Source: Nostocales cyanobacterium (GTDB lineage Bacteria; Cyanobacteriota; Cyanobacteriia; Cyanobacteriales; Nostocaceae). Taken from it: a stretch of DNA of 57,649 nt. Under the pieces are notes generated by a model. It was not told where the DNA came from. It worked only from the letters and a program-made list of their open reading frames with translations, and searched no databases. Positions within the stretch are counted from its first letter, which is position 1. Each line of letters begins with the position of its first letter. The translations under genes were made by a program, and so were the position numbers. The stretch is from contig RDXV01000010.1 of NCBI GenBank assembly GCA_004292695.1, positions 1-57,649 of the forward strand. The letters run 5' to 3'. Shown piece after piece: positions 9,116-51,265 of this stretch.

Positions 9116-9310
9116 TTATTCTGATTGTTTTTTCAGTTGAACTAAATGTGCATCAAATCTAGCATCAGCAGTTTTGATCAGTTGCTTGTAAAAACGACTT
9201 TCACTTCCACCTGATTTATCACCTACAACTAATAATATAGCATTGCGTCTGGGGTTGAATGCAAAAGCCACACGCCAAACCCCAATAGATCCCCGACTTC
9301 TAACATCCAT
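9116..9310 (-). CDS. HigB/RelE-like toxin, apparently 5'-truncated
   Basis: 64 aa with the ILLVVGDKSG killer-protein motif. The N-terminal codons overlap an inverted-repeat mini-element. Confidence 0.5.
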   Translation of the reverse strand: MDVRSRGSIGVWRVAFAFNPRRNAILLVVGDKSGGSESRFYKQLIKTADARFDAHLVQLKKQSE

Positions 9311-9350
9311 TGATAATTTATTTCCAATCTAAAAAAAGAAGTCGGGGATC
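9288..9350. repeat. palindromic mini-element GATCCCCGACTTC-(37 nt)-GAAGTCGGGGATC
   Basis: Perfect 13-bp terminal inverted repeats; related copies at 39030, 51203 and (degenerate) 26732. Confidence 0.8.
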
Positions 9351-9414
9351 TGATTATTAGAAATATAAACTCTACCCTGCGGGATCTCCTGACGGAGATT
9401 GTACGAAACTTAAC

Positions 9415-10360
9415 TCAATGTGTAATTACAATAGCAATTTTCCCCACAGTTCTTTCCCCTTCACTATAACTGTGAGCTTCTGCTAATTTTTGTAACGGAT
9501 ATATGCAATCAATCACCGTTCTGAGTTTATCCGCTTCTATCAAATCTTTCAAAAAAATCAAATCTTGAGTATTGGGATTTTCTAAGACAATTTTTGCTTT
9601 TTTACCAGGAATAAAGGCTGTTAAAACACTCTGTAAAATTACTTCAGGAATAGGCAAAGTTGAAATATAAATTCCATTACTTGTTAACACATTTCTACAA
9701 TCAGAAAATGTTTTTTTTAGCAACAACATCAAAAATAATATCGTACTGCACATTACCATTAGTAAAATCCGCTTGGGTATAGTCAATTACTAAATCTGCA
9801 TTTAAAGACCTCACAAAATCCAAATTTCTCGTACTGCAAACACCAGTTACCTCAGCCCCCAAGACCTTCGCAATTTGTACCGCAAAAATGCCTACACCGC
9901 CAGATGCACCATTAACTAATACCTTTTGACCTGATTTAATATTTCCCAAATTTCGCAATGCCTGGAGAGCCGTTAAAGCTGCTAAAGGTACAGTGGCTGC
10001 TTGCTGATAATTCATATTTGCAGGTTTAATTGCTGCCAACTTTTCTGGTATGGCGGCAAATTCAGCATAAGCACCCCCAGGAAAACTGGTACTACCATAA
10101 ATTGCATCTCCTACCTGAAAGCGCGTCACCTGTGAACCCACTTCCACAACTTCCCCAGCGACATCAAAACCGAGAATTAAAGGAAATTTGTTTCCAGTTA
10201 ATATGCTTAACATCCCTTTGCGGGTTTTCCAGTCAATAGGGTTAACACTACTAGCGTGAACCTTGACAAGTAACTGATCTGGTTTAATGTTCGGTTTTTC
10301 CACCTCTTCATATTTGAGGACATCAACAGCACCATAACCACGAATAACCATAGCTTTCAT
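9415..10360 (-). pseudogene. frameshifted Zn-dependent/quinone oxidoreductase (MDR family)
   Basis: The N-terminal 219-aa ORF (GASGGVG Rossmann motif) and the C-terminal 123-aa ORF overlap at 9701..9786 in different frames. Confidence 0.75.
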
Positions 10361-11395
10361 TACATTTTCTCTCCATAAATATGTTTATGATAGCTACAGT
10401 TTGGTGATCGCCAAAAGTCCAGAGTTATAAATAGTCATAAATTTACAAACTTAATTTTTTAATGTCTAACTTGAGATTATTTCTCACTCTTTCAAGCCTA
10501 TTCCTAATTGTCTATTCCCTATTTCTGAAGAAAATCTCTCAGGTTACTTGCAAATTATCCTCATTAAGAGTTATAGTTTGAGTAGCGGTGAGATAATCCA
10601 CAAGTAGCCAGTTTATCAAAAAAGTGAAAAAAATATTAACTGGATTTTTGACAAGAAAAAAATGCTATGTTAGATACAGAACCCCGTTGACTAATTATTG
10701 ATAAGAGTTCGGTTCATCCCACCCTACTAACAGATTAAAAATTTAGTGAAAATTAAAACTTTTAGTAGTATGGGTTGCCTCAATGAGTACATGATAAATG
10801 TAAAGTTAAAATTTCCCAAAAATCGCTCAAACATTTATATTAACTGCATTTCAACTGAGTACAGAGAAATCCTAAACCCCGCTTCATAAATACTCACACC
10901 CTGATATAAAAACACTTGCACCCCCACCCGAAAAAAATTTATTTAATCTTTGCAATCTGCATAGATACTGGGGTTGAGAAATTTGAGTACAAAGGTAATA
11001 TATCCAATAAATTCTATCCTCAAAAGAGAAAAAACCCATTTAAAAAGTGCTGCTATAAATCATTTATCGCCAATTACTTAACGCTCCTTAACAAAAAAGA
11101 AGTGAAAAGTAAGTGGAGGGATGAGATAGCACCATGCCTGAAGTGAATGGAAGTCGCGGCTGTACAACCCAGGTCTAACCAAGACCCAAAGTTAAGACAC
11201 ACCAGCCAAAGCGATCATCCGCCCACCCTGATCTCAATTATGAAATTAAGAGTTGAGATTTTGGAAGAAAATTCACCAAAATTTTCAATAGCGGGCAGAA
11301 CAACCAACAGACGCGGCTTTCAGTTCATAGGCATTGGAAGTAGCAACGGCATCTCCCACAGTGGCCATTTAGTCCACCGACCCTTGCGAAATTCA

Positions 11396-12826
11396 ATGAC
11401 AAACCCGGCTACAGGACTCCTCACCTCCTCCGAACAGGAAGCTAATCTAAAAGCCAAATCAGGCGGTTGTGGCTGCGACAGCACCACAGCACCAGAAATG
11501 GATGAAAAACTCAAAGCGCGTATCGCCAACCATCCCTGTTATAGCGAAGAAGCCCACCACCATTATGCACGGATGCACGTTGCCGTCGCTCCTGCTTGCA
11601 ACATACAATGTAACTATTGTAACCGCAAGTATGACTGTGCAAACGAAAGTCGTCCGGGAGTGGTCAGCGAACTACTGACACCAGAAGAAGCTGCACATAA
11701 AGTATTAGTGGTAGCAAGTAAAATTCCTCAAATGACAGTTTTGGGAATTGCTGGCCCTGGCGATCCTTTAGCAAATCCAGAAAAAACATTTCGTACCTTT
11801 GAGTTGATCGCAGATAAAGCACCAGATATTAAGCTTTGTTTATCAACCAATGGTTTGATGCTACCAGAATATATTGATCGCATCAAACAATTAAATATAG
11901 ATCACGTTACTATTACCCTGAACACCATTGATCCAGAAATAGGCGCTCAAATTTATTCTTGGGTTCACTATAAACGGAAACGTTATAAAGGTGTGGAAGG
12001 TGCAAGAATCTTATTAGAAAAGCAAATGGAAGGCTTACAAGCTCTCCAAGAAGCTGATATTTTGTGTAAAGTTAATTCTGTGATGATTCCCGGAATTAAT
12101 GATCAACATTTAGTGGAAGTTAACAAAGCAATTAGAGAAAAAGGTGCATTCCTGCATAATATCATGCCGTTAATTTCTGCACCGGAACATGGTACACATT
12201 TTGGTTTAACTGGTCAACGTGGACCAAGCAATAAAGAACTAAAAGAAGTACAGGATCAATGTTCTGGAAACATGAAAATGATGCGTCACTGTCGCCAGTG
12301 TCGTGCCGATGCGGTAGGATTATTAGGAGAAGACCGCAGTCAGGAATTTACTAAAGATAAATTCTTGGAAATGTCCCCAGAATATGATCTAGAAAAACGT
12401 CAAGAAGTACATGAAGGTATTGAGAAATTTAGAGCAGAAATCCAACTAGCAAAAGCAAAAGTACAGGCTGAAAAACAAGTAACCAACAAAAAAATTCTCG
12501 TTGCTGTGGCTACTAAAGGCGGTGGTTTAGTTAACCAACACTTTGGTCATGCGAAAGAATTTCAAATCTACGAAGTAGATGGAAAAGAAGTTCGTTATGC
12601 TGGACATCGTAGAATTGATCAATATTGTCAAGGTGGATACGGTGAAGAAGCTACTGCTGATAATATAATGAAAGCAATAGCAGATTGCCAAGCGGTTTTA
12701 GTTTCTAAAATTGGTAATTGTCCTAAAGAGAAATTAAATGCTGCCGGCATACAGACTGTAGAAGCTTACGATGTAATCGAAAAAGTTGCTTTAGAGTTTT
12801 ACGAGCAGTATGTAAAGGCTCATTAG
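11396..12826 (+). CDS. nifB: FeMo-cofactor biosynthesis radical-SAM protein NifB
   Basis: [14 protein letters not shown] radical-SAM motif and a C-terminal NifX/NafY-like domain. The ORF is open from 11147; the Met at 11396 (MTNPATG...GCGC) gives the ~476-aa homolog length; 11240 is an alternative start. Confidence 0.85.
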
Positions 12827-12835
12827 TAATGAATA

Positions 12836-15975: not shown

Positions 15976-16422
<447 letters not shown>

Positions 16423-16709
16423 TAAGGGGGGTTGTTTAGGGTTTTTGTTGGTGCAATTGTTTGAGGAATTTTGTTTTTTTGTTCCCTATTTTTGCCCTGG
16501 GATTTTTTGGGAAAATGGGGTTTTTGTTTGGGTTTTATGTCTTGGTTTTACCCTATTTTTTACCTTGTGTCAAGGGGGATACATGATTTTTGATAAATGG
16601 GTTACTGATTTTTTGAAACAGTTCTAACAGTTGAATGCAAATACCTATCATAATTTCAGCTAATAGCTACCACAACATTGATGGGTATTTAAGCAGATAT
16701 GATATCACT

Positions 16710-21613: not shown

Positions 21614-23035
21614 CTACAAACTTATTAAACTTTTATTTACTATCTGTAATCTCAATCTTTCATTCTCAATTCTTAACCTCTCATTTTCCTGTTCTAACGT
21701 CATTACCATTTCTTGCAATTCTTCAACCTTAGATTTTTTCTTAATTGCTTCCTCAATTGCAACCTTGCGATTTTCTAAACTAAACCACTTTTGATAAATC
21801 GAAGTGTGCATATTCACAGAATGACCTAAATTATCAGCAGCAGCTTTAATCGGAATCCCCATTAAATGCGCTCGAATTGCCCAAGCATGACGTAAATCAT
21901 AAGGTTGAAAATTCACACCCACAAATCTAAACCATCTATCTGTACCATGTCGCGCTGCATTAATTTCTTTACTGGTTATTTTATCTTGAATTTTCATTTT
22001 TAATAACTCAATTGCTTCTAAATCTGCCTTTAAATTAAACTCTTCCACCCAACGGGGATATAATGGTAAAGCGTCCCTTCCTCCAGTTTTACATTCTTCA
22101 TTAACTCGCCATGTATTCATGGTATTTTCTGATGATAACCACCAATCTAAATCCGGTTTTACAAATATTTCAATCGGTCTTAAACCATAGGTAGCTAACA
22201 TTCCATAAACCCATCTCCACAATTTCCAATTATTTCTATCATCTCTAGTTATCAACTTACTCGGACGGTTAATGGCGTAATTTTCAAACTTAAAATATTC
22301 TTTTTCGATTTCTGTATCAGTGGGTATATCCCGTTTACGTTTTGCAGTAGTTTTAATTTTTAAATTACTTAATTCAGGAACTTCTAAACCAGAACATTTA
22401 CACAAAACCCGAATTACTTTAATTAACTCATTTTTTACACTATCGGAAGATTGGCAATTTTGCACAGCTTCAATAAAATTAGCATTGATTGCTAATTTAT
22501 CCTTGGGTAAATGTTTTTGGGCAATATAAAAATAACTACTAAAAGTATTTTCACTTTTTAAAGTACGTTTCCGAGTTTGAAAATAATTTTTCTCAAAATC
22601 TGCAACTAAATCACCAATGGTTTTTAAACTAGCTTTAATCCGAGTTTTTCCTAAATATTTATCAGTCCATTGAAATTGTTTTCTAGCAATTAACTTTCCT
22701 AACTCATAAGATTCTTCTTCCGCAGTATTTAAACCATCAAAATTAAAAGGAATACCCAAGGAAATATCATATTGTTTTGTACCGCTACCGTTTTTATCAA
22801 TATCTCCTGGTTTAATAGGTAAAGTGCATCTCAACTGTAAGGAATTTCCAGATTTGCGGATATAAACACCAACATTTGCCGCCTTTAATCTAACATTAAT
22901 TGCTTTTAATTCTGTGGTTAATTTTGCTGTTAGATGATTTTCTTGTTCATTTACTGCTTGCATTCTACCTAAATATCCCCCATCGGTAATAGCTGTTTGG
23001 TGAAAATCGGCAAATGCTTCCTGTGTTCTGTCCAT
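21614..23035 (-). CDS. xisA: XisA-family site-specific tyrosine recombinase (nifH element)
   Basis: 473 aa (XisA is ~472 aa) with a C-terminal RHAWAIRAHLMGIPIKAAADNLGHS...HTSIYQKW catalytic R-H-R-Y region; paralogous to ORFs 36789..38090 and 40199..41587. Confidence 0.85.
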   Translation of the reverse strand: MDRTQEAFADFHQTAITDGGYLGRMQAVNEQENHLTAKLTTELKAINVRLKAANVGVYIRKSGNSLQLRCTLPIKPGDIDKNGSGTKQYDISLGIPFNFDGLNTAEEESYELGKLIARKQFQWTDKYLGKTRIKASLKTIGDLVADFEKNYFQTRKRTLKSENTFSSYFYIAQKHLPKDKLAINANFIEAVQNCQSSDSVKNELIKVIRVLCKCSGLEVPELSNLKIKTTAKRKRDIPTDTEIEKEYFKFENYAINRPSKLITRDDRNNWKLWRWVYGMLATYGLRPIEIFVKPDLDWWLSSENTMNTWRVNEECKTGGRDALPLYPRWVEEFNLKADLEAIELLKMKIQDKITSKEINAARHGTDRWFRFVGVNFQPYDLRHAWAIRAHLMGIPIKAAADNLGHSVNMHTSIYQKWFSLENRKVAIEEAIKKKSKVEELQEMVMTLEQENERLRIENERLRLQIVNKSLISL

Positions 23036-23106: not shown

Positions 23107-23607
<501 letters not shown>

Positions 23608-23744: not shown

Positions 23745-25107
23745 ATGACTCCTCCAGACAACAAGAACATTGTTGAAGAAAGAAAAGAACTAATTCAAGA
23801 AGTTCTTAAAGCTTATCCAGAAAAAGCTGCTAAGAAACGTGCAAAACATTTAAACGTACACGAAGAAGGTAAGTCTGATTGTGGTGTTAAATCTAACATC
23901 AAATCCTTACCTGGTGTAATGACCGCTCGTGGTTGTGCTTATGCAGGTTCTAAGGGTGTGGTTTGGGGTCCTATTAAGGACATGATTCACATCAGTCATG
24001 GTCCTGTAGGTTGCGGTTACTGGTCTTGGTCTGGTCGTCGTAACTACTACTTAGGTACTACAGGTGTTGATACCTTCGGTACTATGCACTTCACTTCTGA
24101 CTTCCAAGAACGCGACATCGTGTTCGGTGGTGACAAGAAGTTATTGAAAATGATCCAAGAGATCGATGAGTTATTCCCCTTAAACCGTGGTGTTTCCGTT
24201 CAATCTGAATGTCCCATCGGTCTAATTGGTGATGACATCGAAGCTGTTTCTAAGAAAGCTGCTAAGGAAATTGGTAAACCTGTAATTCCTGTACGTTGCG
24301 AAGGTTTCCGTGGTGTGTCTCAGTCTTTGGGTCACCACATCGCTAACGACCAAATCCGTGACTGGGTATTCCCAAGAGCAGATCAAGCTAAGAAAGATGG
24401 TACTCTCAAGTTTGAATCTACTCCTTACGACGTAGCAATCATCGGTGACTATAACATCGGTGGTGACGCTTGGGCAAGCCGTATCTTATTAGAAGAAATT
24501 GGTTTGCGTGTTGTTGCTCAGTGGTCTGGTGACGGTACTATCAATGAGATGTTGTTGACTCCTAATGTGAAGATCAACCTCATCCACTGCTATCGTTCTA
24601 TGAACTATATCAGCCGTCACATGGAAGAAGCTTATGGTATTCCCTGGATGGAATATAACTTCTTCGGACCTACCAAGATTGCTGAATCTTTAAGAGCGAT
24701 CGCTGCTAGATTCGATTCTAAGATCCAAGAAAACGCTGAAAAAGTAATTGCTAAGTACCAACCCACAATGGATGCGATCACTGCTAAGTATCGCCCCCGT
24801 TTGGAAGGTAAGACAGTTGCAATGATGGTTGGTGGTTTACGTCCCCGTCACGTTGTACCCGCTTTCCAAGACTTAGGTATGAAGTTAGTAGGTACTGGTT
24901 ATGAGTTCGCTCATAACGACGACTATAAACGTACTACTCACTACATCGAAAACGGTACTATCGTTTATGACGACGTAACCGCTTTTGAATTTGAAGAGTT
25001 CATCAAACACTTGAACCCTGACTTAGTTGCTTCTGGTGTGAAAGAGAAGTACGTATTCCAAAAGATGGGTCTTCCTTTCCGTCAAATGCACTCTTGGGAT
25101 TACTCCG
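23745..25107 (+). CDS. nifD: nitrogenase MoFe protein alpha NifD, 5' segment (codons 1-454), interrupted
   Basis: Canonical NifD up to ...[10 protein letters not shown], then the divergent tail [10 protein letters not shown] and a stop at 25139. Confidence 0.9.
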
Positions 25108-25367
25108 AACTTGATAATATTGGTTCAAAGATGCGATAATTTCAGGTTTTTTAATTGGCGATTTTTGAGATTTTAATTTTTAGCCTAAATTGATTTCATT
25201 ATGTTCTATCATAACATTGTTTATAAATAACTGCAAGTATTAAACTTCTGATTTTATCAAGGTGTTAGGGAGTTGTAAGTTTTTGATTTTTGGTGATTTG
25301 GTTAATTTTGATAACTTTTTGTGGTTGGTTTTTCTTAGACTAAAATCCTGACAATAATCAATCACAT

Positions 25368-25458: not shown

Positions 25459-26043
25459 ATGCCCATCATGACAATTAAAGATGTGGAAAAACTCCAAACC
25501 GCTATCAATGAAGCTGGTTTAGATTATGATGTAGAATTAGAAAACGGAAATATTTCTATTATGGGTCCATCGGATATAGTTTCTAGTGAAATTGGTATTC
25601 TTTTTAGCCGACTATTAGCAAACTGGGTTTATCCCCGTCGTTTAGGAAGAGTTTTTGATTCTGCGGGTGGTTTTATTTTACCAGATAGCAATTTAACTGC
25701 TCCCGATGTTTCTTTTGTCCGTGCTGCAAGGTTGCGCCAAAGTCCCCGTTATTTTGGTGAACTTGTACCTGATTTAGTAGTAGAAATTAAATCTCAAAGT
25801 GATAGAATTAAAACCTTAGAAAAGAAAGTTATCAATTTTATTAATTTGGGTGCAGTGGTGGGAATTTTAATTGATCCTGATGAAGAAACTGTAACTGTTT
25901 ATCTTTCTCAAGGTGAACCTGTTGTTTTTCAAAACAATGATATTTTAACTTTACCTGAACTTTTACCTGGTTGGGAATTACCTATTTCTGAATTATGGCC
26001 TCCTGTTTTTACTGAAGAAGAAATACAAGATGCAGGACAATAG
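25459..26043 (+). CDS. Uma2-family putative endonuclease
   Basis: DVSFV...PDLVVEIKSQSD PD-(D/E)XK-like core. Confidence 0.7.
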   Translation: MPIMTIKDVEKLQTAINEAGLDYDVELENGNISIMGPSDIVSSEIGILFSRLLANWVYPRRLGRVFDSAGGFILPDSNLTAPDVSFVRAARLRQSPRYFGELVPDLVVEIKSQSDRIKTLEKKVINFINLGAVVGILIDPDEETVTVYLSQGEPVVFQNNDILTLPELLPGWELPISELWPPVFTEEEIQDAGQ

Positions 26044-26108: not shown

Positions 26109-26699
26109 TTATTCAAAAACTACACCTTCATAAAGTATGTCAATAGGAAATTCAAATTCAATACTAGAGAAAGTGATCATATCCCCTATTGTATAGGGAT
26201 AGTAAAGCCACATTCTTCCTTCTCCACGACAATATCTTTCAACATATATTTTTTCAGAATCAATTAAAATATATTCTTGTAAACTAGGAATTGTTAAATA
26301 ATATCTGAATTTTTCCTCTCTATCTCTATTACTTGTACTAGGAGAAAGCACTTCAACAATTAATTTAGGATATTGAATAAATTTCCGAGCTTTGATATCT
26401 TCAGGATGACAACTAACAATTAAGTCAGGGTAAAAATAAGGACTTTGAGGACTAACTTGAACTTTCACATCTGACACATTAACTCGACAACCTTGAGGAT
26501 GGAGATGAGAATATAAAGGTCTGTAAAGATTGAGCGCAATATCATTATGGGGAATTGTACCACCTGTCATGGCAAAAACTTCACCGTTGATATATTCATA
26601 ACGAATATCTTGGTTAAGTTCCCATACAAAATATTCCTCAATGGTCATTTTTTCTGGTTGTTGAGATATTGCTATCATATCAAACTCCAATTTTTTCAA
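26109..26699 (-). CDS. Uma2-family putative endonuclease
   Basis: MTIEEY...ELNQDIRYEYINGEV...YPDLIVSC...LIVEVLSPST. Confidence 0.7.
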   Translation of the reverse strand: MKKLEFDMIAISQQPEKMTIEEYFVWELNQDIRYEYINGEVFAMTGGTIPHNDIALNLYRPLYSHLHPQGCRVNVSDVKVQVSPQSPYFYPDLIVSCHPEDIKARKFIQYPKLIVEVLSPSTSNRDREEKFRYYLTIPSLQEYILIDSEKIYVERYCRGEGRMWLYYPYTIGDMITFSSIEFEFPIDILYEGVVFE

Positions 26700-26773
26700 G
26701 TTGGTTTTAATTATAGCAATAAAAAATAATAGATCCCCGAATTCTTTAATAACTTAGGGATCTTTATGTTTAA

Positions 26774-28369
26774 TTACTCTCGATTCATTCTAATCAAATC
26801 TGTTAAAATACTATCCAAACTCCCATTAACTTGAATCTTCTCAATCTTCTCCGCAATACGTTCTAAAACCTCCAATTCTTTTAATCTTAACGCCACAGGA
26901 TTATCTTCCATTACCTTAGCAGTATTTAACATACTCCTAGTAGCAGCAGTTTCTTCTCTGCGTCTGACAACATTTGCTTGAGCAGCTTTTTCTGCTTCTA
27001 CAACTTTACTCAAAATCTCCTTAATTTCCCCAGGTAAAATTATATCTTTTACCCCCACAGAATCAACTTCAATTCCATATTCAGACGCTTTTTGTCTAAT
27101 ATATTCTGAGATGCTTCTATCAATCGCTCCCTTATCTTCTAATAGTGCATCTAATGTTCTTTCTCCCACAGCACCGCGCAGAGCAAATTGCAATTCTTTG
27201 TACAAGAAACCTGTAATATCTGATAATCCATTTTTTGCTTTTAAGGGATCTTGAATGCGGAAACCAGCAGTTAAATTTAACCGCAAGGGTACTTTATCTT
27301 TAGATAAAATTTCTTGTCCAGAAACTTCCATATTTTGTAATCTTAAATCAATAGTTTCTGTCTTAAATGATCTGCCAAATATCCACCAAGCATTTACCCC
27401 CGGTTGTAATTGGGTTTGAAATTCTTGATTAATATATAATAATCCAATGTGTTGAGATGGAACTTGACAAATATGTACACAACTACGAATCAAGTTTTTT
27501 ACTTCTGTTGTTCCTTCCACCAATTCAGCAATTAATCGGGGTGATAATTTAGCATCTGTGCTAATATCAATTATTTCTACTTCTACACCTTGCAAAAATA
27601 ATTTTCTGCTTGTAGGTGGTAAAATTGCAATCACTTTTTTACGATATCTGACAACTGCTACCTGAAAATCTAAAAGTTCCACATTTTCACAATAAGCAGC
27701 AACAAATTCAGGATGTTTTTCAATTAAAATATCCTCTAAGGGAAAATCAGGATTAGGTAAAATGCGGCTAATTGTACGTACAGAAACATCTCTATCTATT
27801 GCCCAAAAAGCATATTCACCTTTTTCTAAAGGTTTTACAAAATTGTTCTGTAAATACAACAAACCAATCTCATATTCAGAAATTTGAAATTTTTTAATTC
27901 CATATAAACTAATTCCCCGCAATTGTTGGACAAATATATCGGGTAATTGCAAGGTTTCATCTAAGTTTAAAAAATGAGATTCTACCTCGATAAAACCTCG
28001 CCAAAATGCCCGCAATTGATTAGATCCAATACTTAACCAAGTTTGTCCCCAATGTACTAACGCTGTTTGATTAAATCCGGTTCTAATAATTAATAAATGT
28101 TCTTGAATTTCATTAGCGTGGGATGAACGCAATAATAATTCTAAGTTGTCAATTTCCGCTTCTGGTTCATTGAGATTATATATTCTTACGTTCCAATAAC
28201 GACCAAAATAAGTATATTCACCGGGTGATAATATTTTCTTAAAATCACTGCGGTGATATAAAATGCCAATTTCGTTAGGTTTGATGTAAAAATTTTTCCA
28301 CATAATACTTTGAATCAGTAATTTTATGGGTTGATACCACGAAAGCAATAGGTTTTTTGCACTTTTCAT
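26774..28369 (-). CDS. SPFH/band-7 domain protein with three tandem SPFH-like modules
   Basis: Three repeats each opening with E-IG(I/L)LY...PGE...W, and a C-terminal coiled-coil typical of stomatin/flotillin-like proteins. Confidence 0.55.
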   Translation of the reverse strand: MKSAKNLLLSWYQPIKLLIQSIMWKNFYIKPNEIGILYHRSDFKKILSPGEYTYFGRYWNVRIYNLNEPEAEIDNLELLLRSSHANEIQEHLLIIRTGFNQTALVHWGQTWLSIGSNQLRAFWRGFIEVESHFLNLDETLQLPDIFVQQLRGISLYGIKKFQISEYEIGLLYLQNNFVKPLEKGEYAFWAIDRDVSVRTISRILPNPDFPLEDILIEKHPEFVAAYCENVELLDFQVAVVRYRKKVIAILPPTSRKLFLQGVEVEIIDISTDAKLSPRLIAELVEGTTEVKNLIRSCVHICQVPSQHIGLLYINQEFQTQLQPGVNAWWIFGRSFKTETIDLRLQNMEVSGQEILSKDKVPLRLNLTAGFRIQDPLKAKNGLSDITGFLYKELQFALRGAVGERTLDALLEDKGAIDRSISEYIRQKASEYGIEVDSVGVKDIILPGEIKEILSKVVEAEKAAQANVVRRREETAATRSMLNTAKVMEDNPVALRLKELEVLERIAEKIEKIQVNGSLDSILTDLIRMNRE

Positions 28370-28689: not shown

Positions 28690-28770
28690 ATGCGGAGTCG
28701 AACCGCAGGATTTCTCCTTTACCATTTGCTACCTTAAAAGGGTAGTGTCCTTTAACCTGGACGAGGGCTG
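28690..28770 (-). pseudogene. degenerate tRNA-like remnant (UUU anticodon-arm-like, acceptor stem unpaired)
   Basis: Reverse complement shows a GTCC/GGAC D-stem, a CTACC-CTTTTAA-GGTAG anticodon arm and a GCGG-TTCGACT-CCGC T-arm, but no acceptor pairing. Confidence 0.35.
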
Positions 28771-28771
28771 G

Positions 28772-28861
28772 TTGAAAGTGTAGGATTTGAACCTACAAGC
28801 AGGATGTGAACCTGCAATTTGATCTTGAGTCAAACGCCTCTACCAATTGGGCTAACTTCCG
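28772..28861 (-). tRNA. tRNA-Leu(CAA)-like class II tRNA
   Basis: Manual fold of the reverse complement: acceptor CGGAAGT/ACTTTCA (6 of 7 pairs), 3-bp D-stem with a long D-loop, anticodon arm TTTGA-CTCAAGA-TCAAA (anticodon CAA), long variable hairpin GCAGG-TTCACAT-CCTGC, and T-arm GTAGG-TTCAAAT-CCTAC. Confidence 0.5.
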
Positions 28862-28863
28862 GG

Positions 28864-28935
28864 TTTTTGATACAGGATTTGAACCTGTTCACATTGATTG
28901 AGAGTCAACTGCTCTACCAATTGAGCTAATCAAAA
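28864..28935 (-). tRNA. tRNA-Glu(CUC)-like (atypical all-A/U acceptor stem)
   Basis: The reverse complement folds as a 72-nt cloverleaf: TTTTGAT TA GCTC AATTGGTA GAGC A GTTGA CTCTCAA TCAAT GTGA ACAGG TTCAAAT CCTGT ATCAAAA A. Confidence 0.45.
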
Positions 28936-31231: not shown

Positions 31232-31584
31232 CATTTATCCACTGTATCCATAGCATGATTTAACCATTGCTGATACCATTTTAGAAAGTCTTTTTGTACT
31301 GGTGATTTATGATCAAATTCCGGCAACCAACCCTCTCCAGCAACCCAGATTTTACCACATTGCTCACCACTAATAACTAATATCGTCATCCAACCACATC
31401 CTCGATGACTGACAGGAAAACAACCATTAAGAGGATAATCAGCTTCTATAAAATAATACTCATCTGTTTCTACATTTATTCTTCATTTATGTTTCTGTGA
31501 ACCAAAAACTGCATGATGAAATCGGGGATCTTTTTCTTGCAGTAGCGCTAATTTTTGGCGAATTTCTTGAAAAATGGCTCTCAT
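31232..31584 (-). pseudogene. frameshifted gene remnant (two ORF fragments)
   Basis: MRAIFQEIRQKLALLQEKDPRFHH...stop, then a shifted frame continuing ...GCGWMTILVISGEQCGKIWVAGEGWLPEFDHK...; no intact ORF. Confidence 0.4.
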
Positions 31585-31600: not shown

Positions 31601-32179
31601 TTAATCAGGATAAGCTAAACCTGTGCGTGGATCACGAATATATAAACCTAGTGTTAAACTCCGCATCACTTCATCCCAAATAGGTGTTAATTGTTCTGCT
31701 TGATCCGCCCAATAATCAAAGGTGATTAAACACTGAATATTTGAACCTAAACCTACACAAATTCTAGAATATGCTTCTCTAGGTTCTGCTTGAGTGTCAA
31801 TAAATTTAATTTGTCCCCATATTATTTTGGCGGTTTGCCGTTTAACTTGAATTATTTCCCCTGTTTCTATGACATCTCTACTATCATCTTCAATGACTTT
31901 TTTTAAGGTACGTTTGAGGGGAAATAATGTCCAATCATTGGGGGGTAAATGATTATAGGAAACTTCTAAACAACAATCATCATCGGGGGGTTGTTTATCT
32001 CTAAATTTAAAGGATTTTTCTTGGGGTTCAAATACCCAATTTTGGGGAACGTTAAACCGTACTGCACCCCTACCCGCGACAAATATTTTATAATCTTCCG
32101 GTCCTTCCCAGTGATGGTTCGGATCTAATTCTAGGGTTTCTTTAATCCATTGCAGGTTATTTTTTTTACGTTTAGACAT
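31601..32179 (-). CDS. hypothetical protein
   Basis: 192-aa ORF with no family assignment. Confidence 0.4.
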   Translation of the reverse strand: MSKRKKNNLQWIKETLELDPNHHWEGPEDYKIFVAGRGAVRFNVPQNWVFEPQEKSFKFRDKQPPDDDCCLEVSYNHLPPNDWTLFPLKRTLKKVIEDDSRDVIETGEIIQVKRQTAKIIWGQIKFIDTQAEPREAYSRICVGLGSNIQCLITFDYWADQAEQLTPIWDEVMRSLTLGLYIRDPRTGLAYPD

Positions 32180-36788: not shown

Positions 36789-38090
36789 CTAAAAACTACC
36801 TTTATAAACCATTTCCATTTTTAACTTTTCTAACTCCATCTTCAACCTTTCATTCTCCAATTTTAAAACCAAATTCTCATCTTTAATCACCTCAACCTCA
36901 TTCCGTTTACTCAAAGCCTGATTTATTGCCAACTTCCGCATATCCAAAGAAAACCAACGTTGATAAGTTTTCGTGTGAATCTGTACACTATGACCTAAAT
37001 TATCTGCTGCTGCTTTAATCGGAATCCCTAAAATGTGCGCTCTAATTGCCCAACCATGACGCAAATCATAGGGTTTAAAATCTAAGCCAATTTTTCTAAA
37101 CCACCAGCTAACTCTTTGAATTAAAGCTGTAATTTCTGCATGATTATTTTTATCTTTTTTATTAATTGCTTCTACCAACATTTCTAAATACTGGGGATTT
37201 CTTAAATCAAATTCCTCAATCCATTCTTTATATAAAGGTAATGCTTCCCTTTCTCCCGTTTTACAATCTTTATCAACCTTCCATGTTAAATCTAAATTTT
37301 CCTTACTTAACCACCAATTAACATCAGGATTGATAAATAATTCACGGGGACGTAAACCGAAAACTGCTAACATTCCATACACCCAACGCCACAGTAACCA
37401 GCTATCTTTTACCTCATAATTAACTTGTTTACCTCGATTATTTTCGTATTCCTCAAATTTATAAAAACCTGCTACTATTTCTTTATCTGTAGGAACATTT
37501 CTAGAGTTAGTTTCCGGTGTTTTAGCATAGTTAGTTAAGTTAATTTCAATCTTGAAAAGTTGACAAAATACAGAAATAGCTCTTACAGCATTATATCTTG
37601 CCCATTCTTTATCTATTTTCTCGATTGCATGAATAAAATTGTCCCCAATTGCTAAATCATCAGCTTTGGTATAACGTTTAATTCTGGTATAATAATAAAA
37701 GAAAGTATGCTCACTTTTTGTTGTGCGTTTATGGGTTTTAAAATATTCAATTTCAAACTTTTCTAATAATTTCCCAATAGTTGCTACATCGTTTTTTATC
37801 TCTTCCTTCCCTAAATATTTCTCATTCCAAACAAAGGTTTTCCTAGCAATTAATTTTCCTAATTCATAAGCTTCTTCCTCTGCGGTTTTTAAACCCTCCA
37901 AATTAGCAGGAATGTTTAAACTGATGTTGTATTGTTTTTTACCTAATTTTTTTATATCTGCATCACCCGGTTTAATAGGTAAAGTTGCCCTTAATTGCAG
38001 ACATCCATTTGATTCTCGAATTGTTACCCTCGTCTTTGCAGACTTCAAACGCAGATTTACCTGTTGTATTTGTGTTAAGTTAGTTTTCAT
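36789..38090 (-). CDS. xisA: XisA-family site-specific tyrosine recombinase (nifD element)
   Basis: 433 aa; shares LQLRATLPIKPGD...YNISLNIPAN...TAEEEAYELGKLIARK and a C-terminal RHGWAIRAHILGIPIKAAADNLGHSVQIHTKTYQRWF with the other two XisA-like ORFs. Confidence 0.85.
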   Translation of the reverse strand: MKTNLTQIQQVNLRLKSAKTRVTIRESNGCLQLRATLPIKPGDADIKKLGKKQYNISLNIPANLEGLKTAEEEAYELGKLIARKTFVWNEKYLGKEEIKNDVATIGKLLEKFEIEYFKTHKRTTKSEHTFFYYYTRIKRYTKADDLAIGDNFIHAIEKIDKEWARYNAVRAISVFCQLFKIEINLTNYAKTPETNSRNVPTDKEIVAGFYKFEEYENNRGKQVNYEVKDSWLLWRWVYGMLAVFGLRPRELFINPDVNWWLSKENLDLTWKVDKDCKTGEREALPLYKEWIEEFDLRNPQYLEMLVEAINKKDKNNHAEITALIQRVSWWFRKIGLDFKPYDLRHGWAIRAHILGIPIKAAADNLGHSVQIHTKTYQRWFSLDMRKLAINQALSKRNEVEVIKDENLVLKLENERLKMELEKLKMEMVYKGSF

Positions 38091-38905: not shown

Positions 38906-39029
38906 TTTGGGTTGTTTATTTTATATAAATTATCTCCTCTTATGGTGCGGGCATCTTAGCAGCCAAATGTATGTGTCCATCACCACAATCAATCAACAAT
39001 ATATCCTGTAAATCCTCAAATCACAGTTA

Positions 39030-39060
39030 GATCCCCGACTTCTTAAAGAAGTCGGGGATC
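39030..39060. repeat. perfect 31-bp palindrome GATCCCCGACTTC-TTAAA-GAAGTCGGGGATC
   Basis: Same 13-bp arms as the mini-elements at 9288 and 51203; lies 30 bp inside the right border of the nifD element. Confidence 0.85.
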
Positions 39061-39097
39061 TGGAAAAAACCATTAAACCATCAATAAAAATACTCCG

Positions 39098-39240
39098 GTC
39101 CTTACCACGGTTACGACGGATTTGCAATTTTCGCTCGTGACATGGACTTAGCATTAAACAGCCCAACCTGGGGATTAATCGGCGCTCCCTGGAGCAAAAA
39201 AGCTGCAAAAACCACAGCTAAAGCTAAAGCAGCCGTCTAG
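39098..39240 (+). CDS. nifD: NifD 3' segment (last 47 codons, [21 protein letters not shown]...KAAV*)
   Basis: In frame with 23745..25107 after removal of 25108..39097. Confidence 0.85.
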
Positions 39241-39453
39241 AACTATCTAAAACGGGCAACCTTGCTCAAGGATAGCCTGGGGAAACACCCCAGGGGGGAG
39301 TAGGGAATTCAAATTTCAAAATCTAAGATTCTAAGTTTTGGATTTTGCATTCTGAATTTTGAGCTACATTCCCCACTTCCTACCTAGCAAAACCAAGGGC
39401 GGGGAAACCCGCCCCTTCATGAACAAAAACATCAGCAAGCTTGGAGAACTAGA

Positions 39454-39933
39454 ATGCCTCAGAATCCAGAAAATATTAAAGACCACGTTGAGCTATTCCG
39501 CCAACCAGAATACCAACAACTATTCCAAAACAAGAAAGAATTTGAAAACGCTCACACTACTGAAGAAGTAGAAAGAGTAGCAGAATGGACAAAGTCCTGG
39601 GAATATCGTGAAAAGAACTTCGCTCGTGAAGCTCTCACCGTTAACCCCGCTAAAGGTTGTCAGCCTTTAGGTGCTATGCTTGCGGCTGTTGGTTTTGAAG
39701 GCACTCTTCCCTTCGTGCAAGGTTCTCAAGGTTGCGTTGCTTACTTCCGTACACACTTAACCCGTCACTTCAAAGAACCATTCTCCGGTGTTTCTTCTTC
39801 CATGACAGAAGACGCTGCTGTGTTTGGTGGTCTGCAAAACATGATTGATGGTTTGGCTAACTCCTACACTCTCTACAAGCCAAAAATGATCGCTGTTTGC
39901 ACCACCTGTATGGCGGAAGTTATCGGTGATGAC
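39454..39933 (+). CDS. nifK: nitrogenase MoFe protein beta NifK, 5' segment (codons 1-160), interrupted
   Basis: [15 protein letters not shown]...[12 protein letters not shown], then the divergent tail HLNLLEYL and a stop at 39960. Confidence 0.9.
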
Positions 39934-40163
39934 CACTTGAATTTGCTTGAATATTTGTAGCTCTAATATTTTAATTTTTCAGTGAATTAGTTTGATTAAT
40001 TTTTGCTTCTATTTCAGGTACAATATCCAGTTTTATCAAGCTATAAACTCTAAAATATTTGATTATTTTTTTATTAAATGAGTGAAAGAAACTTATGCTT
40101 GAAAAATAAAAGAGAGATTTTTAAATATATCCCTGAAATTCAGTATTGAATATAGCAAAAACT

Positions 40164-40205
40164 AAATTAATAAATTAATAAATTAATAAATTAATAAATT
40201 AATTT
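40164..40205. repeat. tandem 8-mer (TAAATTAA)x5
   Basis: Immediately 3' of the recombinase stop inside the nifK element. Confidence 0.8.
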
Positions 40206-41587
40206 TTTAACACTTCTGCTATTTGATGCTTCGCTAACAATTCTTTTAGTTTTTCATTTTCTGCCTTCAATTTTACTATTTCCTCTTTTAGTTCATTTAA
40301 TTCATCTTTTTTTTCTACCGCTTGTTTAATAGCTTTTTTTCGGTTTTCTAAACCAAACCATCTTTGATAAGTGTCTGTATGTTGTTGTACAGAATGACCA
40401 AGATTATCTGCTGCTGCTTTAATTGGCACTCCCATTAAATGCGCTCTAATTGCCCAAGCGTGACGTAAATCATAAGGTGAAAAACCTAAATCAACTTTCT
40501 GAAACCAGTCAGATAAAGCAGCACTTAACGTGTGCATACTTTTTGTATCATCACGTCCATTGATATAATTTTTCACCAATTTAACAATTTCAGGATTTTT
40601 CAGATCAAATAAATCTATCCATGAGTCATATAATGGTAATGCTTCTCTATCACCAGTTTTACACAATTCATGAACTTTCCAAGTTCTATTTTCAGACAAC
40701 CAATGATTAAAGTCAGGATATAAAAAAAGCTCTCTAGGACGACAACCATAAGCGGCTAACATTCCATAAAACCATCTAAAAACTAACCAGTAATCTGCTT
40801 GTTCTTGTCTTTTGTTACGTCTATTAATTGCGTATATTTCCCATTTATAAAAACCTGTCTCAATGGTGGATTCATCAGGAACTTTACGAGCTTTAGGTTT
40901 AGGACGTTTAAATTTTAAAATTAAAGGAATATTAAATTCTTTACAGAATAAATTTAGAGCTATACAAGTGCGATGTTTCCAACTAGGAGTATTATTAGAT
41001 AAAGAATCAAATTGTTTTTTAATATTTTCTGGAGTTGCTAACATATCCCGATCAAATTGATTTAACACACCGAGATAATTTTTAAAAAATGTCCCTTCAG
41101 ACTTAATATTTCTTTGCCTAGAGCTAAAATATATATGTTCATAATTATCTAATAATTCACCAAAGGTTTTCTCTGTTTTGTCCTGCTTATTACCTAAATA
41201 CTTCTGATTCCATTGAAACTGCTGTCTAGCAATTAATTTTCCTAATTCATTCGCTTCTTCTTCCGCAGTTTTTAAACCATAAAAATTAGCAGGTATTCCT
41301 AAAGAGATTTTATATTGTTTTTTGCCGTTTCCCTTAGTATCAATATCGTTAGGTTTGAGAGGTAATGTTGCTTGCAGATATAAACTACCAGCTACTTTCA
41401 CTATAGAGACTCGTGACTTAGCTGCTTTTAACCGTGAATTAACTTCTTTGAGTGCAACATCAAATTGAAGGTCAGTATGAGCAGCTTGTTTTTCCAAATG
41501 TTTCATAGTTCCCATGTATGTACCGTCTGTAGTGGCAGTTTTGACGGTAGATGCTTGATAACCCTTGTGTAGCTTGGTTTTTGGCAT
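40199..41587 (-). CDS. xisA: XisA-family site-specific tyrosine recombinase (nifK element)
   Basis: 462 aa with a C-terminal RHAWAIRAHLMGVPIKAAADNLGHSVQQHTDTYQRWF. Confidence 0.85.
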   Translation of the reverse strand: MPKTKLHKGYQASTVKTATTDGTYMGTMKHLEKQAAHTDLQFDVALKEVNSRLKAAKSRVSIVKVAGSLYLQATLPLKPNDIDTKGNGKKQYKISLGIPANFYGLKTAEEEANELGKLIARQQFQWNQKYLGNKQDKTEKTFGELLDNYEHIYFSSRQRNIKSEGTFFKNYLGVLNQFDRDMLATPENIKKQFDSLSNNTPSWKHRTCIALNLFCKEFNIPLILKFKRPKPKARKVPDESTIETGFYKWEIYAINRRNKRQEQADYWLVFRWFYGMLAAYGCRPRELFLYPDFNHWLSENRTWKVHELCKTGDREALPLYDSWIDLFDLKNPEIVKLVKNYINGRDDTKSMHTLSAALSDWFQKVDLGFSPYDLRHAWAIRAHLMGVPIKAAADNLGHSVQQHTDTYQRWFGLENRKKAIKQAVEKKDELNELKEEIVKLKAENEKLKELLAKHQIAEVLKN

Positions 41588-41740: not shown

Positions 41741-42796
41741 TTAGGTGCATTCATTACCAACGCTAAAAACGCTGGTTCTGTTCCTAAAGATTTACCAGTT
41801 CCCTTCGCTCATACTCCTAGCTTCGTAGGTTCTCACATCACCGGTTACGACAACATGATGAAGGGAATTCTTTCTACCTTAACAGCAGGTAAAAAGAAAT
41901 CCTCCAGCAATGGCAAAATCAACTTCATGCCTGGTTTTGATACCTACTCAGAAAACACCCGCGAATTAAAGCGGATTGCTTCTTTAATGGGTATTGACTA
42001 CACAGTTCTTTCTGACACCAGTGACTATGTTGACTCACCTAACGATGGTGAATTCAATATGTATCCCGGTGGTACTAAGTTAGAAGATGCAGCAGATTCC
42101 ATCAACGCTAAAGCTACCGTTGCTCTGCAATCTTACTCCTTGACCAAAACTTGCGAATACATCGCTAAGGAATGGAACCAAGACGTTTGTGTTTCTCGTC
42201 CTTGGGGTATCAAAGGAACTGACGAATTCTTAATGAAAGTCAGCGAATTGACTGGTAAAGCAATTCCTGAAGAATTAGAAATCGAACGTGGTCGTGCAGT
42301 TGACGCAATGACCGACTCCCACGCTTGGGTACATGGTAAGCGCTTCGCTATCTACGGTGATCCTGACCTAGTTTACAGTGTAGTTAGCTTCATGTTGGAA
42401 TTAGGCGCTGAACCTGTACACATTTTGGTTCACAACACCAACAAAGAATTTGAAAAAGAATTGCAAACTCTCTTAGATTCTAGCGAATTTGGTAAAGACG
42501 CTAAAATCTGGGGTGGTAAGGACTTGTGGCACTTACGTTCCTTGTTATTCACCGAACCCGTAGACTTATTAATCGGTAACTCCTACGGTAAGTACCTGTG
42601 GCGTGATTGTGGTGTACCCTTAGTAAGAATCGGTTATCCCATCATGGACCGTCACCACTACCACCGCTATGCAACCATCGGTTACAAAGGTGTAATCAAC
42701 TTGTTGAACTGGGTTGTTAACACAATCTTTGAAGAAATTGACCGCAACACCAACGTTGCTGGTAAGACCGATATTTCTTACGACTTAGTACGCTAA
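41741..42796 (+). CDS. nifK: NifK 3' segment (codons 161-511)
   Basis: LGAFITNAKNAGSVPKDLPVPFAHTPSFVGSHITGYDNMMKGIL...; in frame with 39454..39933 after element removal. Confidence 0.9.
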   Translation, partial: LGAFITNAKNAGSVPKDLPVPFAHTPSFVGSHITGYDNMMKGILSTLTAGKKKSSSNGKINFMPGFDTYSENTRELKRIASLMGIDYTVLSDTSDYVDSPNDGEFNMYPGGTKLEDAADSINAKATVALQSYSLTKTCEYIAKEWNQDVCVSRPWGIKGTDEFLMKVSELTGKAIPEELEIERGRAVDAMTDSHAWVHGKRFAIYGDPDLVYSVVSFMLELGAEPVHILVHNTNKEFEKELQTLLDSSEFGKDAKIWGGKDLWHLRSLLFTEPVDLLIGNSYGKYLWRDCGVPLVRIGYPIMDRHHYHRYATIGYKGVINLLNWVVNTIFEEIDRNTNVAGKTDISYDLVR

Positions 42797-48282: not shown

Positions 48283-48292
48283 GAGGTATAAA

Positions 48293-49075: not shown

Positions 49076-49144
49076 AGTTTCACCACAAAACAATAATTAA
49101 CCTACATCTGCAAATCGGAATAATCGCTACAGGGTAGAAAAAAA

Positions 49145-49516: not shown

Positions 49517-49799
49517 AAAATTTTGGAACTTAGGAAAAAATAAATATGGATTCTTTTCTAAGTTCCATCTTTTAACAGTGGACAGTGAACAGTTAACAGT
49601 GAACAGTAAATAGTTATTTGGTGAATTAAACTGAACTTTTTCACCTTTGTCTACTGCTATTTTACTTACAAAATTACAAGTTCTCTGTAGACAATCTCTA
49701 CATTATTTGTCTACATAAGGGGACATTTACCTAACTAGATTAGGTAAAAACTCACTACACAAATTACAAGTTCTATCCAATTTTGAGGAGAACCGAAAA

Positions 49800-50099
49800 A
49801 TGGCAACCTATCAAGTTAAACTAATCAACAAAAAAGAAGGATTAGACACTACAATTGAATGTCCTGATGATATGACAATTGTAGATGCAGCAGCAGAAGC
49901 AGGAATTGATTTACCTGTTTCTTGTAGTGCTGGTGCTTGTTCTAGCTGTGTAGGTAAAATTGTTGAAGGTGAAATTAACCAGGATGATCAAAGTTTCTTA
50001 GATAACGATCAACTGGATCAAGGTTTTGCTTTATTATGTGTTACTTATCCTCGCTCTAATTGCACAATCAAAACCCACCAAGAACCTTATTTGGTTTAA
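49800..50099 (+). CDS. fdxH: heterocyst-type [2Fe-2S] plant-like ferredoxin FdxH
   Basis: 99 aa [10 protein letters not shown]...[12 protein letters not shown]...LLCVTYP. Confidence 0.85.
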
Positions 50100-50211
50100 T
50101 ACAAATTTAGGTTTTAGTATCCCTAAACACCTATTTTAATCTTAATGATGATGGATGATTATTGATCATCTTTCATCATTTCAGTTTTTGCTGTCTAGGT
50201 ATAATTCTTAG

Positions 50212-50469
50212 TTGGAAATGTTCACTTCTTTTACAATTACAGGCTGTTCTTTAGAATTACTCAAACCTGGTGATAAAGGTATTGTTACTATCTGTCAAAC
50301 CCAGGATGAAACAATTAGAAAAAAACTCACTGCTCTAGGTATCAGAACAGGCATTCATATCACTGTAGAACAACAGTTTCCATCTATTATTATTAAAGCT
50401 GCTAATGTCTCTTTGACTATTGATAAAGCTATAGCGAGAGCTATTTATATTCGTGTACTTGAAGATTGA
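50212..50469 (+). CDS. FeoA-domain protein
   Basis: 85 aa with the LKPGDKGIVT SH3-like FeoA signature. Confidence 0.55.
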   Translation: MEMFTSFTITGCSLELLKPGDKGIVTICQTQDETIRKKLTALGIRTGIHITVEQQFPSIIIKAANVSLTIDKAIARAIYIRVLED

Positions 50470-50593
50470 GATTGAGTATCTATTTAATTTTTCAAACCTA
50501 TAAATATCAAGAGTTTTAGGACTGACGGCTAAAAAATACTCTGAATTACACATTTAATATTAAAATTAATAACAGTAATATTAAAATATCAGC

Positions 50594-51181
50594 TTGTCCG
50601 TGAAAACTCAGAAATTACCGATCCAAAATTTAGCCGCTAAAATCTTTCATACTCTCAATATTATTAGTCTATTCTTAATGATTACCAGCGGGTTACAAAT
50701 TTACAACGCTAACCCCGTTTTTGGCGGCCGTGCAGGTTTACACATTCCCCCCATTTTCACATTAGGAGCTTGGTTAGCAGGGGGTAGACATTGGCATTTT
50801 GCAGCAATGTGGTTATTTTCCCTCAACCTTCTATTCTACGGAATTTTTATTTTCATCACCAGAAGATGGCGACATAAATTTGTAGGAAAAAACGACATCA
50901 AAGCCCTACAAAAAACCCAAAACCCCAAACGCCTAACCTATGCTTGGCATCGCATTATTTACACATCCATAATTCCCATATTATTACTAGCAATTTTAAC
51001 AGGAATAGGAATGTACAAACCTGCCCAATTTCCCTGGATAGTTGATATGTTTGGAGATTGGCAAGCACTAAGAATAGTACACCTTGCCTCAGTTCCCCTA
51101 ATTACAATATTCGTCATCATTCATTGGAAATTAGGCAAAAAAGCCGGAGGAGAAAAACTCATAGAATCAATGTTTTGGTAA
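50594..51181 (+). CDS. MsrQ/YedZ-like membrane heme-b protein (cytochrome b-type)
   Basis: About 5 transmembrane helices with conserved His; adjacent to a molybdopterin oxidoreductase. Confidence 0.55.
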   Translation: MSVKTQKLPIQNLAAKIFHTLNIISLFLMITSGLQIYNANPVFGGRAGLHIPPIFTLGAWLAGGRHWHFAAMWLFSLNLLFYGIFIFITRRWRHKFVGKNDIKALQKTQNPKRLTYAWHRIIYTSIIPILLLAILTGIGMYKPAQFPWIVDMFGDWQALRIVHLASVPLITIFVIIHWKLGKKAGGEKLIESMFW

Positions 51182-51202
51182 CTAAAAGTGACAGGTGATA
51201 AG

Positions 51203-51265
51203 ATCCCCGACTTCTGACATCAATTTATCATTTATGAACACAATAAATCAAAGAAGTCGGGGATA
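51203..51265. repeat. palindromic mini-element GATCCCCGACTTC-(37 nt)-GAAGTCGGGGAT
   Basis: Third copy of the family; lies between the MsrQ-like and MsrP-like genes. Confidence 0.8.

Follow-up and report, generated by a model that had tools for sequence, protein, structure and literature searches.

Very small palindromic dispersed repeats are an already known kind of sequence in cyanobacteria, comprising small dispersed repeats (SDRs), repetitive extragenic palindromes (REPs) with their hairpin-forming doublets (REPINs), and stem-loop repeats that lack a tag. SDR1-8, which Elhai and co-workers are said to have described in 2008 from Nostoc punctiforme and its relatives, are reportedly 21–27 nt long and abundant in N. 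punctiforme. REPs and REPINs have been treated by Bertels & Rainey (2011, PMC3116915) and by Di Nocera et al. (2013, PMC3733652), the latter of whom also mention "untagged" stem-loop repeats. The MITE (miniature inverted-repeat transposable element) Nezha (Zhou et al. 2008) is summarised in PMC3184786 as 130–170 bp long, with direct-repeat target duplications and with terminal inverted repeats (TIRs) common to ISNpu3. Here we describe a 33-bp hairpin repeat in contig RDXV01000010.1, part of the metagenome-assembled genome (MAG) of an uncultured "Nostocales cyanobacterium", and refer to the whole of this 57,649-bp contig as the window. The repeat is an added member of the small REP-like or SDR-like cyanobacterial repeats, and differs from the SDRs in their reported length.

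A family of palindromic repeats had been proposed in a preliminary description of this DNA, and its presence was borne out by enrichment of the arm sequence: the 13-mer GATCCCCGACTTC, with up to two mismatches allowed, matched the window eight times against 0.55 expected, a number reached in none of 100 shuffles. These matches resolve into one perfect short form, two long forms, one decayed copy and one solo arm. The short form at 39029–39061 (AGATCCCCGACTTCTTAAAGAAGTCGGGGATCT), already recognised as a perfect palindrome from 39030 onwards, extends to 33 bp, with 16-bp arms and a single central base; folded as RNA it gave –28.3 kcal/mol (z = –7.8). It lies in a divergent spacer and ends within the nifD element, 29 bp from its right border (core TACTCCG, 39091–39097), in agreement with the roughly 30 bp originally given. 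The first long form (9287–9351), located between the stop of an ADH-like gene, possibly a pseudogene, and a HigB remnant, had been described with 13-bp perfect arms (9288–9300 and 9338–9350) around a 37-nt loop; this holds, and the arms extend to 15 perfect base pairs (9287–9301 and 9337–9351) around a 35-nt A+T-rich filler. The second long form (51201–51265) occupies the msrQ–msrP spacer, 21 nt past the msrQ-like stop. Its loop is indeed related to that of the first, both being A+T-rich, but it measures 38 rather than 37 nt, and the arms (51202–51214 and 51253–51265) are perfect over 12 bp instead of 13, the 13th base being mismatched and the right arm carrying the variant GGGGATA. This hairpin is also the core of a composite outer element of about 110 bp (approx. 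51190–51301, forward strand), consisting of CAGGTGAnAAG, the hairpin and ATGGGTATGAAAGAGTGCGATGCCTGAATACTTAC, which recurs at two unrelated loci (L010 and L048) with the inner module either way round.

The decayed short form AGATCCCCGAATTCTTTAATAACTTAGGGATCT differs from the intact unit at 5 of 33 positions and lies inside the nifD element, 10 nt past the end of a Band_7 gene (26774–28369, reverse strand). It spans 26731–26763, so that a degenerate copy is present where one had been indicated, with its end near 26763 and not at 26766. A solo right arm GAAATCGGGGATCT at 31518–31531, which had been missed before, carries one mismatch, has no partner arm and is situated about 70 nt past the stop of a reverse-strand open reading frame (ORF; 31601–32179). 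Rfam at gathering thresholds found two tRNAs only in the whole window, with no match at any repeat copy.

To follow the repeat beyond the window, we scanned one genome per species with the pattern ATCCCCGACTTC...GAAGTCGGGGAT, which yielded at least 119 loci; the 127 copies among the matches listed form the base for the spacing, logo and duplication counts below. The family thus reaches far outside this contig and across many cyanobacterial genera, both filamentous Nostocales (Nostoc, Calothrix, Fischerella, Scytonema, Tolypothrix, Dolichospermum, Anabaena, Cuspidothrix, Sphaerospermopsis and Nodularia) and Microcoleus, Coleofasciculus, Potamolinea, Floridaenema, Chamaesiphon, Stenomitos and others, to which a plasmid search added Kovacikia. 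The 33-bp unit had no match among N. punctiforme and PCC 7120 plasmids, and the one match in a Rikenellaceae MAG in the genome scan is compatible with chance. Phage as a vector was considered and rejected, related copies being absent from both phage collections searched: a Bacteroides phage supplied the single match from INPHARED, weak and partial, and IMG/VR gave only three G+C-rich phage contigs in which the 12-nt stem sits within an unrelated hairpin, for which chance is plausible. In the papers that could be searched, the repeat sequence returned unrelated primer matches only; it may still coincide with one of the SDR families.

The unit defined by these copies is AGATCCCCGACTTCT-YNR-AGAAGTCGGGGATCT (Y = T/C, R = A/G), a perfect 33-bp hairpin in which the 12-nt arms are separated by 5 nt in 101 of the 127 copies and by 6 nt in another 12. 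Stem positions lying outside the search pattern were nearly invariant (outer A in 126/127, outer G in 111/127, inner T and A in 99–100%) and the central base was uniform (A 30, C 27, T 23, G 20). Beyond the AG/CT ends pairing stops sharply, with 15% of positions paired against 33% expected over the 127 copies. Where the stem does vary, the arms vary together. The outermost variable pair (6–36) was GC in 38 copies, AU in 5, UA in 4 and CG in 3, pair 18–24 was CG in 46 and UA in 7, and double changes were seen at eight pairs. The covariation score was 0.129 against 0.083 in shuffles, a value reached in none of 500. Compensated variants were likewise seen in non-seed copies, such as CTTTT..AAAAG and AGAACCCC..GGGGTTCT. 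Because both arms change together, the conserved entity is the hairpin and not the sequence of the duplex.

That the repeat inserts is indicated by a filled and an empty version of the site at the nifD-element border. In a related strain (L226), with 88% protein identity in the neighbouring RNA-ligase gene, the border reads GGTTTTTAATTCCGCTATAACTGTGATTTG, whereas the window has GGTTTTTTCC, the 33-bp hairpin and AACTGTGATTTG. Both flanks are conserved, nothing is duplicated, and about 5 nt have been replaced; this clean empty site means that the repeat inserts without duplication, at the cost of about 5 nt. Two further relatives (L216 and L217) lack the repeat at this spot and have an unrelated 40 nt there. 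The msrQ–msrP spacer of relatives at 77–78% protein identity is short and free of the repeat, and no arm was found in this spacer at any of the 80 msrP loci scanned; L144 (80% identity) does carry the repeat there, GGGGATA variant included. The view of the arms as TIRs had implied target-site duplications flanking each copy, and these failed to appear: at 2–8 bp and offsets 0–5 the 127 copies showed no excess of direct repeats. Besides the degenerate copy (26731) and solo arm (31518) of the window, decay has left solo or deleted copies at other loci. The pair L048/L069, in which the same 140-aa gene is followed by the repeat, was rejected as orthologous, since the flanks cannot be aligned and the downstream genes differ.

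The copies share a genomic habit. Only 8 of 111 lay inside long ORFs, the remainder being distributed over 32 convergent, 63 tandem and 8 divergent spacers, at a median distance of 35 nt (mostly 10–80 nt) past the nearest upstream stop codon; the genes upstream were unrelated housekeeping genes with no functional theme. In being extragenic G+C-rich palindromes at the 3′ ends of genes, the copies conform to one of the traits that define a REP. An oriented intrinsic (Rho-independent) terminator was rejected as their role. Changes at the loop-closing pair that are U·G-compatible rather than C·A relative to the upstream gene were concordant in nine cases and discordant in nine, and the mean T count in the 10 nt past the hairpin (3.6 vs 3.3 and 3.5 vs 3.1) did not differ between strands by gene direction; the lack of strand bias in either measure gives no support to an oriented RNA terminator.

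Some copies are nested in larger palindromes. Two palindromic MITE-like Nostocales repeats of about 100 bp hold the hairpin exactly at their apex: family A (loci L011, L021, L061, L083 and L115) and family B (L018, L064, L096, L099 and L110), the host palindromes having the ends TATAGCAATCCTA...TAGGATTGCTATA and ACTAGTGGTCTGTCCCATTA...TAATGAGACAGAGTACTAGT. An Anabaena variabilis palindrome, TATAGGAnTnnnATTTGATTnnTGAAA--TTTCAnnAATCAAATnnnAnTCCTATA, has been reported as host of GTAG-15 REP dimers (Di Nocera et al., PMC3733652). It is the same as the family A context, in which TATAGCAATCCTAAATCATTCGTGAA and TTTTCACAAATCAAATAGGATTGCTATA enclose the hairpin, so that in Fischerella, Nostoc and other genera the family A palindrome has the 33-bp hairpin at its apex instead of the GTAG-15 dimers. 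The copies in the window are not surrounded by the family A palindrome. General residence inside pre-existing larger hairpins was considered and rejected, complementary flanks placing only some 10–13% of copies at the centre of larger palindromes (overall p = 0.07).

A long form, 63–69 bp overall, is a derivative with an A+T-rich module of about 35 nt at the hairpin apex. Loops of 33–47 nt with related sequence, matching those of the window, occur in Dolichospermum, Anabaena, Cuspidothrix and Trichormus. An independent mini-element consisting of this module was rejected, as the module was searched for outside the arms and never found there. Relative to the outer flanks, either orientation of the module is found. 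Between the window (51216–51250) and L144 (2389–2424), for instance, the inner module of about 36 nt is inverted while the arms and immediate flanks keep the same orientation, which suggests that the module may flip by recombination between the 16-bp inverted arms. Loci of Stenomitos (L057), Caldora (L076) and a "Sericytochromatia" contig (L051) have the same arms around unrelated sequences of 36–38 nt, a length close to that of the 37–38-nt module of the Anabaena/Dolichospermum group.

A sequence that is dispersed, found in filled and empty sites, inserted without duplication, accompanied by decay products, covarying in its arms, preferentially 3′ intergenic, nested in other palindromes and possessed of a lineage-specific long form is, we consider, probably a non-autonomous REP-like palindromic mini-repeat, with the hairpin as the unit that is propagated and recognised. 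An enzyme specific for hairpins, encoded elsewhere and acting in trans, may copy the repeat in single-stranded form (as DNA, possibly via RNA), and could be of the HUH/Y1 type or another; alternatively, template-switch repair from another copy could produce new insertions. Copies would persist in 3′ intergenic DNA because insertions there are least harmful, and a hairpin of this strength (about –28 kcal/mol) in 3′ untranslated regions may have incidental effects on transcript ends.

Several observations weigh against this interpretation. The copy number is apparently low in most genomes outside this lineage, as judged from the msrP loci, the plasmids and the at least 119 listed loci, which together make up an incomplete per-genome census: 384 kb of unselected DNA at the msrP loci held two complete copies, and the six plasmid records with matches had them in few places each, even on megabase-sized plasmids. 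The 16-bp arms are nevertheless identical across cyanobacterial orders, which a purely selfish repeat would not usually show and which fits either selection for a function or frequent horizontal spread. The clean empty site is a single case (L226). Between L144 and the window, the msrQ–msrP copies agree at 31 of 32 arm positions, at 75% of the module after inversion and at about 50% of the flanks, and the conservation of arms over loop and flanks suggests that constraint or homogenisation may have acted after insertion. Moreover, phmmer searches with nine seeds of REP-associated tyrosine transposases (RAYTs) and TIRYTs, taken from Additional file 5 of PMC3733652, found no RAYT or Y1 gene adjoining any copy among the ORFs of 221 loci and the window, and the single weak RAYT match lay 2.9 kb from a copy, this search covering loci and not whole genomes. 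Near the roughly 130 copies no other recurrent neighbour gene was found either. As to a partner protein, all-against-all clustering of the ORFs at the at least 119 loci recovered only the usual multi-copy families (CHAT/TPR, sensor kinases, ABC ATPases, Uma2 and pentapeptide proteins). Genes of the Uma2 family, putatively restriction endonuclease-like and very abundant in cyanobacteria, neighbour the hairpin at six of these loci, and two of them lie in the nifD element of the window (25459–26043, forward; 26109–26699, reverse).

The explanation that best survives beside that of a mobile mini-repeat is a host-selected cis-element, that is, a sequence-specific hairpin or palindromic binding site for which mobility is secondary. 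Such an element might, among other roles, signal 3′ ends or mRNA stability, act as a bidirectional terminator, or be bound by a conserved dimeric or hairpin-binding protein. The cross-order identity of the arms at low copy number, and their far better conservation than loop and flanks between the two msrQ–msrP copies, are what such an element would show, as are the tight placement past stop codons, the rarity in divergent spacers (which contain promoters only), the compensatory arm changes and the great stability of the hairpin. Against it, an RNA structural role alone would need no identity of sequence, and a DNA site for a dimeric protein would not predict compensated arm variants. The repeat is also absent from the orthologous sites of the closest available relatives at two of the three testable window loci, decayed and solo-arm copies exist, the upstream genes have no common functional theme, and neither the loop-closing changes nor the T-runs show strand bias. 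On balance we regard a host-selected element as unlikely. A more speculative thought, to which we attach little weight, is that the hairpin, more than mere selfish DNA, is what a conserved hairpin-specific enzyme system of cyanobacteria acts on or makes, a system that would keep regenerating or homogenising a fixed 16-bp stem around a free central base. Such a system, if real, would explain the cross-order identity of the arms at low copy number together with their symmetric co-variation, and would also explain insertion without duplication, nesting at hairpin apexes and the conservation of arms over loop and flanks.

An actual REP/REPIN family, set in motion by a cyanobacterial RAYT (TnpA_REP, subclasses 2.4, 2.7 or 2.8) elsewhere in the genome, is improbable. 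Cyanobacteria do possess several RAYT subclasses (PMC6006769), the habit of a short G+C-rich extragenic palindrome following genes without target-site duplication is shared, and the same host palindrome holds GTAG-15 REP dimers in A. variabilis (PMC3733652), but the diagnostic features of a REP are wanting. No unpaired GTAG/CGTC tag accompanies the copies: G was found at –4 in 1 of 127 and at –3 in 5 of 127, and the palindrome ends symmetrically in AG/CT. The copies are singletons rather than inverted doublets, with one tandem pair only (in L029), and among those listed there was nothing of the inverted doublets in hundreds of copies per genome that characterise REPINs; the RAYT seeds, as noted, found no adjoining gene. 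Least probable of all is a classical MITE, with the arms as the two TIRs of a DDE insertion sequence (IS), the long form as a 63–69-bp MITE and the short form as a TIR–TIR deletion derivative or a structure like an IS-circle junction: the 15–16-bp perfect inverted ends, the variable 1–3-nt centre resembling abutted IS ends and the MITE-like size and A+T-rich interior of the long form would suit it, but it is contradicted by the lack of 2–8-bp duplications at any boundary offset, by the replacement rather than duplication of about 5 nt at the filled site, by the lack of arm pairs at IS-length spacing and of a recurrent transposase in the loci (a limited sample), and by a short form of 33 bp, on which a paired-end transposition complex would hardly fit within one molecule. 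For classical MITEs and for canonical REP/RAYT elements alike, a defining feature was tested and found wanting. An origin of the arm in a tRNA 3′ half was dropped on inspection, there being no U8-compatible reading.

The 9287–9351 copy adjoins a HigB/RelE-like gene (Gp49, PF05973), which had been thought truncated by insertion of the repeat. The reverse-strand ORF (9116–9310, 64 aa) contains only the C-terminal half of the domain, matching profile positions 43–89 of 90 in Pfam. Full-length HigB homologs are about 100–110 aa long with the consensus ...DTLNGSRHxNMKELRFxAADGVWRVAFAFDP, whereas the window protein reads MDVRSRGSIGVWRVAFAF, and alignment with 29 homologs showed that the N-terminal ~45 residues (..LxxFGxxLGRPxVDTLxGSRHxNMKELRF..) are missing from it. 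Native sequence begins at about GVWRVAFAF. The loop of the repeat supplies the ATG and the two codons after it, its arm supplies codons 4–8 (RSRGS), and a stop codon is found six codons upstream of the ATG. The partial Gp49 match, the ATG in the loop and the upstream stop together confirm that the gene is truncated and that its start, amounting to the first ~8 codons as originally proposed, derives from the repeat; the attribution of that start to the element arm holds for RSRGS, while the ATG and the following two codons come from the loop.

Insertion as the reason for the truncation did not withstand comparison. The missing 5′ half of higB is not on the far side of the repeat, where only 63 bp (9352–9414) separate it from the ADH-like stop; the first ~19 bp past that stop match Sphaerospermopsis, and the remainder is unrelated. 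Two assemblies, that of Sphaerospermopsis FACHB-1094 (L125) and a second one (L130), have a syntenic locus with the order ADH – Phd antitoxin – PIN – Uma2 – higB′ – higA – DUF5615 – DUF433, and the higB′ there (55–57 aa) is truncated four codons further in, abutting the Phd–PIN–Uma2 cassette with no hairpin repeat. Because the window keeps more native codons, its state cannot derive from that of Sphaerospermopsis, and two truncated genes with differing junctions mean that the truncation is recurrent or old. Given the absence of the 5′ half beyond the repeat and the repeat-free truncated relatives, the repeat marks a deletion or rearrangement junction; that it split the gene is not supported. 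The remnant would then be a pseudogene at a rearrangement junction ending in a repeat copy, with a fortuitous ATG. For annotators, the repeat accounts for a spurious 64-aa "toxin" ORF by having supplied its start codon.

Downstream of the remnant, an intact reverse-strand ORF (8777–9097, 106 aa) stands in the position of the HigA antitoxin; it has no Pfam match, is labelled by position, and has the same neighbours in Sphaerospermopsis. Both genes belong to a dense toxin–antitoxin island (6492–9310) upstream of the nif cluster, comprising DUF5615 (PIN-like, 7316–7669), DUF433–DUF5615 (8131–8773) and higA–higB′, and the same position in Sphaerospermopsis has extra Phd–PIN and Uma2 genes. On the other side of the repeat, the zinc-ADH-like gene (9415–10360, reverse strand) is split into two overlapping ORFs (9701–10360 and 9415–9786) by a one-base difference at an A-run: the sequence is GCTAAAAAAAACATTTTC, whereas Sphaerospermopsis, with an intact gene of 314 aa, has GCT-AAAAGTTCGTTTTC; this could be either a pseudogene or a homopolymer assembly error.

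In the remainder of the window, all three nitrogenase structural genes (nifH, nifD and nifK) are interrupted, each by an element with its own XisA/XisC-like recombinase. The order is nifB-fdxN-nifS-nifU-nifH′-...-′nifH-nifD′-...-′nifD-nifK′-...-′nifK-nifE-nifN, and the arrangement involves the intervals 15988–16425, 21614–23035, 23191–23607, 23745–25139, 36789–38090, 39091–39960, 40199–41587 and 41855–42796. An element of about 6.8 kb separates the N-terminal (Pfam 1–138) and C-terminal (152–270) parts of nifH, and one of about 1.9 kb separates residues 1–163 and 199–516 of nifK. The element in nifD, about 14 kb long, has TACTCCG cores at 25101–25107 (left) and 39091–39097 (right, forward strand), where nifD coding resumes. 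Inside it lie tRNA-Leu(CAA) and tRNA-Glu(CTC) (28769–28935, reverse strand), which abut with no spacer and which, by that location, would leave with the element in heterocysts. Independent assemblies of this organism from short reads (Logan; L222–L225, each at the contig start, and L120) without exception stop either within the perfect 33-bp palindrome or no more than about 90 bp from the 9288 copy, so that the repeat acts as an assembly breakpoint; the perfect palindromes thus explain the exact break sites of these assemblies.

The repeat matters modestly, as a well-defined and unusually widespread and conserved addition to the poorly understood very small palindromic repeats of cyanobacteria, and its mode of insertion is documented: no duplication, a few bases replaced, and 3′ intergenic DNA and hairpin apexes as the favoured places. 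If the arms are kept by a dedicated enzyme or host function, the repeat would offer a tractable entry to how REP-like elements without a RAYT are made and maintained. SDRs reportedly resemble it in being tens of nucleotides long, in appearing and disappearing at orthologous sites, in leaving no target duplications and in nesting; at a reported 21–27 nt against a unit of 33 bp, they differ from it in length. With Nezha, as summarised in PMC3184786, the repeat shares a non-coding nature, inverted ends, stable hairpins and filled and empty sites, but even its 63–69-bp long form differs in having no duplications and no IS partner that we could find. The closest likeness is of habit, to REPs and REPINs (PMC3116915, PMC3733652): all are short G+C-rich extragenic palindromes found mostly after genes, rare in divergent promoter regions, without target-site duplications and sometimes nested in larger palindromes. 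The 33-bp repeat departs from them in having no GTAG/CGTC tag, in being a perfect palindrome where theirs is imperfect, in occurring singly and not as inverted doublets, and in that no RAYT was found nearby, and whereas REPs are usually species-specific, it is identical across orders at a low apparent copy number.

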